Source: a virus (lineage: Duplodnaviria > Caudoviricetes). Taken from it: a DNA stretch of 26,497 bases. Numbering within the stretch: position 1 is the first letter of the stretch; each line of letters opens with the position of its first letter. The position numbers were made by a program, and so were the translations under genes. Shown piece by piece: positions 583 through 6,061 of this stretch. The notes beneath the pieces are model-generated. The model had not been told where the DNA came from. It saw only the letters and a list, made by a program, of their open reading frames with translations, and made no database searches. The stretch is from IMG/VR virus record IMGVR_UViG_3300037762_000035, positions 1 through 26,497 of that record; one strand, 5' to 3'.

Positions 583-627
583 AAACTCTTTCTCGAAGTA
601 TTCGCAATTCGCGAATCCCGAATATAC

Positions 628-1034: not shown

Positions 1035-1121
1035 TGGTGGGCAATCACGGTAACGATCCGCGGCGGGCCGATGGCCGACAGGTTTACAGCCTGCCCCGCG
1101 TCCTTAGCGGTCTAATCACCC
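1035..1121 (-). tRNA. tRNA-Tyr(GTA)
   Basis: GCAGG-CTGTAAA-CCTGT; long variable arm; variant T-loop ATCGTTA. Confidence 0.92.
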
Positions 1122-1130
1122 ATTTAAATC

Positions 1131-1785: not shown

Positions 1786-1897
1786 TTTCGAAGGCGCTGT
1801 GCGGTCGGAGTGCTCGGGCAGGTCGTACCCGGGGACTCACTCGCCGCGGCGGGCACCGAATCCCCGTAGAGCCCGAGGGACCACAGCGCCTACGAAA
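1786..1897 (-). ncRNA. Unassigned ~112-nt rod-shaped structured RNA between tRNA-Pro and tRNA-Ala
   Basis: Nested helices TTTCG/CGAAA, AGGCGCTGT/ACAGCGCCT, GGTC/GACC, CTCGGGC/GCCCGAG, CGGGGATTC/GAGTCCCCG plus apical hairpin; a G-U pair favours the minus strand. Confidence 0.75.
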
Positions 1898-1975
1898 TGG
1901 TCAGGAGGGTGGGATTCGAACCCACGATCTCCCGGTTCCAAGCCGGGTGACTTGACCAGACTAGCCTACCCCCTG
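1898..1975 (-). tRNA. tRNA-Pro(TGG)
   Basis: CCCGG-CTTGGAA-CCGGG; C1-G72, A73. Confidence 0.96.
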
Positions 1976-2019
1976 ATGTAGGGTGGCTTGGGTCGCGGTC
2001 GTTTGCCGGCTTTGCTCAT
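1966..2019 (-). CDS. 17-aa Pro/Arg/Lys-rich micropeptide MSKAGKRPRPKPPYIRG
   Basis: ATG 9 nt after SD GAGGAG (2034-2029); TAG stop lies inside the first 10 nt of tRNA-Pro. Confidence 0.55.
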   Translation of the reverse strand: MSKAGKRPRPKPPYIRG

Positions 2020-3149: not shown

Positions 3150-6061
3150 GCTGCCACCTCCGGGTCTCGTTCGAGAAGTTTGTCGATGCCATCGAGCGCC
3201 GCGTGCTTGGCGTTCACCTGCCACACGCGAGTCTGCCCGCCCTTGAACTGCGTGCCACGGCCCATCGTGACCTTGAAGTCGCGCGCACCGTGGTCGATCA
3301 GGATGCCCGCTTTCGTAAGCTCGGTCCTGATTTCGTGGGTGTTAAGCTGAGCCTTGCTGCACCAGTTCCGGATCGCGTTCTGGTCGATGTTGATGATCCC
3401 GGTTGTCTGGTTGTACTCGATCAGCAGCTTCCCGTGCGCGGCCGGCGGCTTGATCACGGCGACCATGCCCTTGCCCATCTCCGACACCACCAGCCGGTCG
3501 GCGAGGTGCGCGTTGAGGAACATCGAGAGGGCCTCGACCGACGAGAACTTATTGTCCGCCACGGCTGTGCGCTGGCGCATGATCTGCTCCGTGCACCACT
3601 TCCACATCCGCTGATAGGTCGCGTTCGCATTGGCGAACTTGAGCGCGCCCGAGCCGTCGGCCAGCCACAGGCCATAGAGCACGCAGGCGACGAGCGCGTA
3701 CCAGAATCTCTCCTTCCCCTCGAAGATGACCGACTTGCTGAAGTTCTCCGTCATCTCGCGCAGGCGCGCCTTCGTGTCGGGCTCCTCCAACTGCACCAGA
3801 TACTTGATGTACTTCTCCCCCGCGTGCCCGTAGTTCTGGTCGAGCACGTCGTAGATGCCCGGCATGTCGGCCTCGAACCACTTGTGCTTCGCCACGGTGT
3901 ACTCGAACAGTCGGACAAGCTCGGCCTCGGGGTCCACCTTCGCCTCCAGCAGCCGGCCCGCCATCGAGCGGTTGCCCGAGGTGAGCACGATGGTGCTCCA
4001 CTCCGCGGCCTCGCGCACGGTCGAGTCGCTGCGCAGGCGCGTGCGCCCGACGCCCTGACTGATCTGGTACATAAGTTCGCTCACGTCCTCGGCCTTGATG
4101 TTCGTCGTCTCGTCGAGGTACACCGGCAGATTCGACAGCATGCCGAGGCGCTCGATGCGTGCGTTGAAGGTGTCGGTCTTGCCCGCCTTGAACGGATCGA
4201 AGTTGCCGTAGATCGACGCCATCGCCCGGGCGCTCAGGGTCTTGCCGGCGTTGCTGTCCCCCAGCATCGCGGCGACTGCGCCACCGTGGCCGGTGAGCTT
4301 GAGGAGCGGTGCACCGAACCCGATCAGGATGCTGAACAGGTGGGCCTCCAGCCCCTCGCGGTCGAACAGCTTGATCGCGTCGCTCCATGCCTCGTGCGTC
4401 CCGCGAGTATGGTAGCTGTTCACGATCTTCGTGCTGACCGTGGACGACAGCCCTGCCGGGTGGGTGCCCTTGTTGGTGAACATCTTCGAGCCGAGCAGGA
4501 ACGAGTGATCCGGCAGCCACCCCATCTTCGTGTGAAGCTGCTTGATTTTCATCTTGTCCTGAAGCTCACGTAGGTACGCATCCATATAGGCCACCATGTA
4601 TTTTCCGTTCTCGGGGTTAACGAAGTTGTTCCGCATGGCCCCGAGGAACTCGCGCGGCGCTTCAATCGACGCCAACGCTAGGTTGAAATCGCGCCAGCCT
4701 TCACGCGGCAACCAGTGCCGCACGCCGACGCTCCCTTCCAGCTTCCCCGCGTCGTTAATGATGACGGTGGGATACAAATCGTAGGGGTAGAAACGGACCG
4801 GGACCCCTTGATCAATCTCGATGTAGAGCCCCGGCTGCTCGTCCGATCCCCGCTTGAACGGCCACGGCGGGTTCGGCAGTTCAACCTCGCGCTCCTCCCC
4901 ATCCACGATCTCCTTGACCTTCGGAGCCGGGGCCTCCTCCACGATCATGCCAAGCTGGAGCGGGGTGCTGATCTTACCAGCGAACGGGCAGTTCTTGCAA
5001 CCGTCCGGGTTCGCCGTGTTGAACGTCGAGCAGAGCGTCGGGCCCATGCCGCGAATCTGCGCGAGCTTGGCCTCGGTTGCCGGCTCGGTGTATTCCTTGT
5101 GCTTGGCGCTCCACTCGTGCGCGAGCTTCTCGCCCTCGATGGTGTGGGGCATGATCTGGATCGCGCGGTACCAGTGCGGCTCGCTTATGCCGCCCGTCTC
5201 GCGGAACAGCTTGATCTGGTTGCACCGCTCGGCGACCTTGATGGCTGAGACTTTCTGGAACCCGCCGACCGGGACGATCATGTCCTCGGGGTTAACCTTC
5301 AGCCCCTTGCTCTTGTCGGTGTCCAACTCCTCGACCTTGTTCGCCTTCATCGCCGCGAGGATCGTCGTGTGGAACACGCCGTACTCGACGACCGGGATGG
5401 GCTGGCCTTCGAGCGGCAGCAGGCAGCGCACCGGCATCGCGCCGGCCACGTCGTTCTTGATCTTGCGGTTCGTCGTGCCGACCGGGCGGAGCACGCTCGA
5501 CTCGTCGGCGGTGCGCGTGGAGTCAGCGAGTAGCCCGAGGCCGACTGTAAGCTCCTTCAACTGTAGAGCGGTCGCCCGCCATTGGCCCGGTAGTACGCTT
5601 GTCGTGAGCGGCCAGTACACGTGCACGCCGTAGCCCGACGAGATGATCATCGGGCGGGGCAGGCCGGTCTTCACGAGGAAGTCGTTTAAAGCAACGATGG
5701 CCGTGCGCTGATCCGGGTACTTCGCAGCCTTGCCGGCCTCGGCCGCACCCACGTCGAGGTCCAGCCAGAACGCTTTAACTAGCTTGACGTTCTCCTTGAT
5801 GCGGTGCTGCCGCTTGACCTTGGTCTCGCCGGTCGTGCGGTCCTGCACCGGGCGGTCCACGAACTCTGCTCGGAAGCCCGAGGTGGCGAAGTAGATATTC
5901 TGCGCCGTGTTCGCTTCGAGGTGCGCAATGCGATGCGCAAGCTCCTCGATGGAGGAACAGGAGGTGTGGCTAAAGCCCTTGCCTGATGGGGACGGGACAG
6001 CTACGAAATAAAAGCTGTCGTCCTCCGGCAGCACGGCCTTGAGGAAGTCGAGGAGTTGCAC
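3146..6061 (-). CDS. Primase-helicase (AEP/RepB-type primase + Cys-cluster domain + DUF927-type ATPase/helicase)
   Basis: WLDLD and SSGYGVHVYW primase motifs; C..GCKNC cluster; Walker A GDSNAGKT, Walker B VYLDE; 971 aa. Confidence 0.88.
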   Translation of the reverse strand: MQLLDFLKAVLPEDDSFYFVAVPSPSGKGFSHTSCSSIEELAHRIAHLEANTAQNIYFATSGFRAEFVDRPVQDRTTGETKVKRQHRIKENVKLVKAFWLDLDVGAAEAGKAAKYPDQRTAIVALNDFLVKTGLPRPMIISSGYGVHVYWPLTTSVLPGQWRATALQLKELTVGLGLLADSTRTADESSVLRPVGTTNRKIKNDVAGAMPVRCLLPLEGQPIPVVEYGVFHTTILAAMKANKVEELDTDKSKGLKVNPEDMIVPVGGFQKVSAIKVAERCNQIKLFRETGGISEPHWYRAIQIMPHTIEGEKLAHEWSAKHKEYTEPATEAKLAQIRGMGPTLCSTFNTANPDGCKNCPFAGKISTPLQLGMIVEEAPAPKVKEIVDGEEREVELPNPPWPFKRGSDEQPGLYIEIDQGVPVRFYPYDLYPTVIINDAGKLEGSVGVRHWLPREGWRDFNLALASIEAPREFLGAMRNNFVNPENGKYMVAYMDAYLRELQDKMKIKQLHTKMGWLPDHSFLLGSKMFTNKGTHPAGLSSTVSTKIVNSYHTRGTHEAWSDAIKLFDREGLEAHLFSILIGFGAPLLKLTGHGGAVAAMLGDSNAGKTLSARAMASIYGNFDPFKAGKTDTFNARIERLGMLSNLPVYLDETTNIKAEDVSELMYQISQGVGRTRLRSDSTVREAAEWSTIVLTSGNRSMAGRLLEAKVDPEAELVRLFEYTVAKHKWFEADMPGIYDVLDQNYGHAGEKYIKYLVQLEEPDTKARLREMTENFSKSVIFEGKERFWYALVACVLYGLWLADGSGALKFANANATYQRMWKWCTEQIMRQRTAVADNKFSSVEALSMFLNAHLADRLVVSEMGKGMVAVIKPPAAHGKLLIEYNQTTGIINIDQNAIRNWCSKAQLNTHEIRTELTKAGILIDHGARDFKVTMGRGTQFKGGQTRVWQVNAKHAALDGIDKLLERDPEVAA

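Follow-up and report, generated by a model that had tools for sequence, protein, structure and literature searches.

The stable non-tRNA RNAs encoded in the tRNA regions of phages T4 and T5 have had no known role for decades (PMC3014915, PMC9697503; T5 annotation). In T5 (GenBank AY543070.1), RNAIII (106 nt) and RNAIV (103 nt) are annotated as 'stable RNA with unknown functions', and in the folds of both, the two ends form a long stem that encloses a multibranched interior. The RNAIII stretch runs from the CCA of RNAI to tRNA-His; counted from the base after this CCA to the first G of tRNA-His it measures 112 nt, and its ends close with 16 of 16 pairs. The T4 cluster encodes RNA C (species 1 in the annotation, 139 nt) and RNA D (species 2, 119 nt).

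Two other kinds of structure bear a likeness to the locus described here. Processing helices cut by RNase III, such as the stems of rRNA operons, keep a constant stem length with a variable sequence and bracket an insert in a polycistronic transcript, and the RNase III sites of the T7 early region are further helices of that kind. Y RNAs measure 80-130 nt and have a long end-to-end stem with variable loops (PMC4201824); their bacterial and phage forms (YrlA, YrlB and Yrn1) are about 100-130 nt long, with a stem formed from both ends.

We analysed an entire virus contig of 26,497 bases (the window), whose ORFs include a primase/helicase, an SNF2-type helicase, a family A DNA polymerase and a NUDIX hydrolase. 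Its closest cultured matches are 61-64-kb Pseudomonas and Rhizobium phages (Rollin, KPP25 and RHph_TM27) at about 30% identity, so that a proteobacterial host is likely. Sediment metagenomes make up the majority of the sequencing runs that contain window DNA, with no RNA dataset among these 24 runs; in run X10 the stretch discussed below is unchanged within a single contig. A tRNA array of 19 genes (ARAGORN) extends across positions 1-2119 of the minus strand and is headed by a promoter-like site, one of three found in positions 1-2500 against 0.5 expected.

Within this array an element of 112 nt (1786-1897, minus strand) has its first base next to the CCA of tRNA-Pro and stops 1 nt short of tRNA-Ala. 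Sequence and ARAGORN gene calls thus confirm the tRNA-sized slot that the original prediction had assigned to it, and the flush placement makes release by normal tRNA processing possible, as had been proposed. A motif scan agreed that the element is without an anticodon arm, an internal T-loop, a CCA end, a U-tract and an SRP motif, and comparison of the four elements described below gave no conserved ORF inside it. The coordinates are collected in the Table.

Table. Features of the element, its flanking operon and the comparable inserts of related phages
Feature	Position	Strand	Remark
Sigma-70-type promoter-like site, TTGACA-17-TAAGAT	2131-2159	minus	head of the tRNA operon; 10/12 matches
tRNA-His(GUG), operon gene 1	2046-2119	minus	
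tRNA-Pro(UGG)	1898-1975	minus	ARAGORN; starts with C; encoded CCA adjoins the element
5' arm of 16-bp clamp, element nt 1-16	1882-1897	minus	U-U mismatch at pair 6
Exchangeable, self-folding interior, 80 nt	1802-1881	minus	48% identity to G001 interior; replaced in X22/X23
Long interior hairpin, nt 32-68	1830-1866	minus	mostly kept in X18 and X19 (G-U and two-sided changes)
Small interior hairpin, nt 69-77	1821-1829	minus	weakly predicted
3' arm of 16-bp clamp	1786-1801	minus	
Lone U between clamp and next tRNA	1785	minus	position -1 of expected RNase P site; present in 4/4 phages
tRNA-Ala(UGC)	1709-1784	minus	ARAGORN
G001 inserts	L127 3636-3722, 3890-3986, 3987-4079, 4327-4393		
G013 inserts	L149 9481-9563, 10065-10130, 10207-10313, 10641-10718, 11536-11603		

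By build rather than by sequence, the closest architectural match is T5 RNAIII/RNAIV. The T5 RNAs and the element share their size, their site in a tRNA operon with flush tRNA ends, the end stem and the multibranched interior, and both are without an anticodon arm, a T-arm and a CCA. There is no sequence similarity between them (equal or better scores in 50 and 65 of 300 shuffles), and a BLASTn search of phage records with the window element returned no T5-like record among 12 weak matches. The window's group of ~64-kb phages differs from T5, and its RNA is predicted from DNA contigs, whereas the T5 RNAs are annotated as stable. Furthermore, all 283 matching phage records, which are close kin, carry T5 RNAIII at 95% identity or more, whereas the interior of the element is replaced between relatives. 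The comparison with the T4 tRNA cluster in the original prediction named the right class of RNA, but RNA C of T4 contains a T-arm, RNA D terminates in GCACC(A), and unlike the element neither closes end to end (9/16 and 7/16 pairs). An apparent likeness of one related element (G001, below) to RNA D was lost after dinucleotide shuffles and correction for multiple comparisons.

On the minus strand the element has a predicted minimum free energy (MFE) of -61.1 kcal/mol (z -3.95), which none of 200 dinucleotide shuffles equalled. The helices of the five-helix rod (5+9+4+7+9 bp) proposed earlier are similar to those of the MFE structure, which nevertheless is no plain rod: it branches at a three-way junction, and an additional small hairpin (idx 69-77) has pair probabilities of ~0.5-0.7. 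For the plus strand z is -2.78, and the sense strand has the lower z in all four phages that carry an element (-3.95 in the window; -4.12, -2.69 and -1.66 in the three relatives). The original prediction had argued for the transcribed strand from a single G-U pair. One such pair (G41-U59) is indeed present in the MFE structure and alone is weak strand evidence; the lower z of the sense strand in 4/4 phages, together with three changes in the close variant X19 that yield G-U pairs on the sense strand, is better.

The same slot is occupied by a segment of 124-136 nt in three related IMG/VR phages. G001 (L127; complete, 64 kb, with most aligned gene regions 75-91% identical to the window) has the order Pro-[124 nt]-Ala. 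G002 (L001; primase 72% identical to that of the window) has a 132-nt segment ending one U before tRNA-Ala and encodes tRNAs for His, Ala and Thr only, and G013 (L149; complete, primase 41% identical) has the order Pro-[136 nt]-His. The promoter hexamers of the window also precede the arrays of G002 and G013. More widely, some primase-bearing relatives have few tRNA genes or none (5 of 37 records contain any, though many are fragments), which speaks against the functional reading given below, and a primase search of GTDB returned no prophage relative.

All four elements start with UU and end with AA, followed by a U and the next tRNA. Of 16 possible end-to-end pairs, 15 form in the window, G001 and G002 and 12 in G013, counts that were reached by 1, 0, 1 and 69 of 5000 shuffles, respectively. 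The first 12 nt of the G001 element are identical to those of the window and pairs 13-16 (4/16) are altered on both sides; in G002, 6/16 pairs are altered on both sides and the mismatch sits at pair 7 instead of pair 6. A DNA inverted repeat can be co-corrected by a single template-switch event. Closure at 15/16 is reached by 7 of the 1,086,377 segments of 100-140 nt on the minus strand of the window contig, four of them nested versions of the element itself. When it is combined with the boundaries CA/UU...AA/UG, a rule derived from the elements themselves, only the elements of the window, G001 and G002 remain among 68 loci (1.82 Mb, both strands). Closure at 12/16 also arises by chance in coding DNA, so that the G013 element is taken as homologous by position only and is the weakest of the four cases. 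Closures of 13/16 in gut-phage relatives lie within coding DNA and were rejected as chance. The comparison covers four full sequences with unalignable interiors.

Judged from these sequences, what is conserved is the clamp of 16 bp at the ends, and the interior within it can be exchanged. The four interiors, though replaced, are still predicted to fold, with the z values given above. The rod does not hold as a conserved unit, as related phages share only the terminal clamp; because the close variants X18 and X19 break its helices and interiors are replaced between phages, it is best described as one allele's fold.

We hypothesize that this clamped module is likely released as a stable RNA of ~113 nt and that its most likely role is in trans, as a structured RNA that decoys host proteins which bind or cut RNA, a reading to which we give a probability of roughly 0.4. 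Transcription would start at the promoter at 2159-2131 and yield the element within the tRNA precursor. The 5' end of the element could then be made by RNase E cutting directly after the CCA of a C1-type tRNA-Pro, and its 3' end, with a 1-nt overhang, by RNase P cutting before the next tRNA. E. coli RNase E cleaves C1-bearing proline tRNAs directly after their CCA (PMC8860583), and the phage tRNA-Pro begins with C in all three phages that have this tRNA; processing of polycistronic tRNA operons by RNase P is described in PMC7049720. Since its ends are fully paired, the product may withstand both 5'-end-dependent and 3' exonucleolytic decay; access for the two enzymes may come from the weak U-A pairs at the outside and from the mismatch at pair 5-7. 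A paired 5' end together with a 3' overhang of 1 nt would make the RNA a poor decay substrate. The interior would be exchanged by recombination at the conserved ends, in the way in which whole tRNA alleles are exchanged in the array, and interiors swapped in this way would be in keeping with decoys adapted to particular hosts or defences. Of the whole scheme, function is the least secure step.

That the clamp serves its passenger is more likely than that it serves tRNA separation, for which it is not needed given that 15 of the 19 inter-gene gaps in the window array are at most 15 nt long. A trans role is favoured because the passenger was kept when G002 lost most of its tRNAs and was never shrunk in the versions seen. 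In G002, CAGTCTC, identical to the first 7 nt of the G013 tRNA-Pro, directly precedes the element and is probably the scar of a deleted tRNA-Pro; the element is thus retained despite the absence of this tRNA and of most others. Phage tRNA regions have been proposed to counter host tRNA nucleases (PMC10264068).

The leading alternative, which we consider somewhat less probable than the decoy reading, is that the element is a neutral, self-folding filler, with a clamp that prevents mispairing with neighbouring tRNAs, an interior that is a relic or recombination product and a released RNA that is a by-product. Between the window and G001 the interior is 48% identical, exactly the shuffle mean (48), beside 95% for tRNA-Pro and 100% for tRNA-Ala, and such identity at shuffle level between close phages is what a filler would be expected to give. 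Among the four elements, none of the six interior pairs beats shuffles and no motif of at least 6 nt is common to all, although a decoy aimed at a single fixed protein ought to retain one. In X18 and X19, the listed differences are confined to nt 33-93, include indels and disrupt the 4-bp helix (16-19/92-95) and the equivalent of three pairs in the region of the 7-bp helix (pairs 21-85 and 23-83), as neutral filler would show. By analogy with T5, the replacement of the interior may also speak against a decoy, RNAIII being near-invariant. Furthermore, G001 and G013 carry other stem-closed non-tRNA inserts, mutually unlike and lacking in the window, a further point for the filler.

In contigs of runs X22 and X23 the interior is replaced, whereas the two 12-nt ends and the adjoining tRNA ends are retained. 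By record coordinates, 100 letters lie between the 12-nt ends in X22, 79 in X23 and 88 in the window, although a joint table gives 79 for both contigs. Several observations stand against the neutral explanation. None of the six versions seen is reduced to a short hairpin (the spacing between the 12-nt ends is 79-100 in four of them and the total length 103-136 nt), although deletion should be easy in an array where most gaps are so short, and the element persists in G002 though tRNA-Pro and most tRNAs are gone. In the long hairpin of X19, one two-sided change (G33-C67 to A-U) and three G-U-forming changes accompany one broken pair. Finally, allele swapping is general in the array, so that interior divergence alone is no proof of functionlessness: when the window is compared with G001, divergence exceeds 20% in 8 of 20 tRNAs (three of the G001 coordinates coming from a relaxed tRNA scan), and in X18 the body of tRNA-Ala is replaced by a different one.

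We regard as rather improbable a second alternative, in which the clamp is a cis-acting RNase III processing helix, extended into CCA/UGG to 19-21 bp and cut near the mismatch so as to separate the tRNAs, with the interior as a mere loop. The clamp can indeed be extended outward by 3, 3, 5 and 4 pairs (window, G001, G002 and G013), and it is stem length rather than stem sequence that is conserved. Only 16 bp lie inside the spacer, against the duplex of ~22 bp that the enzyme accommodates (PMC6212723), and the outward pairs would form at the expense of the following tRNA's acceptor stem. Complementarity between CCA and UGG is to be expected wherever two tRNAs adjoin, no such helix is needed elsewhere in the array, and a folded loop of 80-100 nt is unnecessary for a cut site.

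Very improbable, lastly, is a Y-RNA-like RNA, or an RNP with the basic protein encoded at 241-363 that would read the clamp while the interior tethers other factors: size, end stem and variable loops fit (PMC4201824) and G002, with its array of three tRNAs, has kept the basic ORF as well as the element, but the Ro-binding motif GNCGAAN0-1G (PMC4201824) or GGUCCGA occurs in 0/4 elements, the element has no Rfam YrlA match for T/D arms (a loose UUCGA occurs in G002 only), no Ro60/TROVE gene is found among the 45 ORFs of the window, itself a fragment, or in the complete G001 and G013, and the basic ORF is absent from G013. This ORF (40 aa, minus strand, inside the tRNA array) carries a PWTARQRR motif, is also kept in G001 and has 8 protein-database homologues, none with a Pfam domain; its product is possibly an RNA-binding peptide.

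We searched for the element and its relatives in catalogued families and sequence collections. As had been predicted, it is uncatalogued by Rfam, with no match on the window element at the gathering score or at E<=10, and none on the elements of G001, G002 and G013. Queried with BLASTn against 50,697 phage records, the four elements gave short chance pieces only, as did the window element against plasmids. A 14-mer scan of IMG/VR (120 loci) gave no tRNA-linked homologue. Two tRNA-His patterns returned G002 and an unrelated phage only from IMG/VR and nothing from metagenomes, and a pattern for the Ala junction returned four bacterial tRNA-Ala genes from metagenomes, in which the stem is missing. 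The three IMG/VR matches to the Pro-junction pattern are G001, G013 and one chance locus. The element is not a MITE- or REP-like DNA repeat, a possibility raised with the original prediction: it is single-copy in the window, and the 18 matches to an end-pattern search of GTDB genomes are scattered over phyla, with 0/18 adjoining a tRNA gene. No complementarity or source for the interior was detected in the phages' own genomes beyond chance.

Several known kinds of RNA were rejected. The suggestions of a 6S-like polymerase ligand and of an antitoxin mimic found no backing in an Rfam match, in repeats or in a conserved interior motif. SRP RNA and 6S RNA were set aside, as neither Rfam model matches and an SRP motif pattern is not found, and a retron msr-msd was set aside because the reverse transcriptase PF00078 occurs in 0/3 records, two of them complete. 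A tRNA or an RNA of the T4 RNA C/D type does not fit an element without a T-arm and without an acceptor stem plus CCA. The case is less clear for HDV-like theta ribozymes at tRNA 3' ends, nested double pseudoknots that start at the tRNA 3' end: the element has no Rfam ribozyme match, and its 5'-to-3' clamp mismatches that topology. Full-text literature searches returned no description of the element or of a function for T5 RNAIII. The three contig identifiers and a 12-nt end motif are not in the searchable supplements of the Fremin 2023 catalogue (PMC10690425), where a listing is possible. Collectively, these results indicate that the element is a real, uncatalogued variant of a long-known, unexplained kind of phage RNA and no sequence member of a catalogued family.

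A bolder form of the decoy reading, which we regard as speculative and improbable, is that the slot is an RNA expression cassette, with a constant, host-cut clamp and swappable folded cargoes of 70-105 nt that would each decoy a different RNA-sensing defence or nuclease. If true, the slot would be, in RNA form, the equivalent of the variable slots that hold anti-defence genes, and the stable RNAs of T5 and T4 would find an explanation in it. Natural variation in the window family dissects a non-tRNA RNA of the T4 and T5 kind by keeping the clamp and exchanging the interior. Should the interiors be decoys, a group of RNA factors for counter-defence is encoded in phage tRNA arrays. Should they be filler, the clamp remains a small scaffold, processed by the host, with which a tRNA operon can be made to yield an RNA of choice.

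The arrays hold further features. The inserts of G001 and G013 listed in the Table are non-tRNA, mostly stem-closed segments of 65-105 nt without an Rfam match and without significant mutual likeness (dinucleotide shuffles, 91 comparisons); one of them (L127 3893-3986) has an acceptor-like stem with CCA at its end. An apparent likeness of the window interior to the post-Gly insert of G001 was lost after dinucleotide shuffles and multiple comparisons. An HNH endonuclease gene lies in the G001 array between Met and Gly (L127 3251-3559; L139 ~5500-5800) and is a possible driver of array mosaicism.

In the window, a gene that resembles tRNA-Tyr(GUA) and whose variable arm is long lies at ~1036-1123 (minus strand); ARAGORN and Rfam gathering missed it, and G001 has a tRNA-Tyr in the matching slot. 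The acceptor stem of tRNA-Ala contains two non-standard pairs, yet the G001 copy is identical. The 45-nt gap between Asp and Val (583-627, minus strand) folds into a weak hairpin only (z -0.91).

Upstream of the array, at ~2260-2309 on the minus strand, lies a conserved non-coding motif composed of a C-rich tract followed by CCGG/GCGGG-TTCTTT. The motif is also present in L001, L127, L143, L148 and L149, between the replication genes and the tRNA promoter, and occurs even in a relative where no tRNA was found; it is probably a terminator variant.

Finally, the gap between tRNA-His and tRNA-Pro holds a 17-codon ORF (1966-2019, minus strand) rich in Lys, Arg and Pro, with a purine-rich leader and a stop codon that falls within the 5' end of tRNA-Pro. 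In G001 the ORF has 18 codons, and the changes at 2005 and 2008 (G001, X18 and X24) are at third codon positions. The peptide may resemble ribosome-binding proline-rich peptides.
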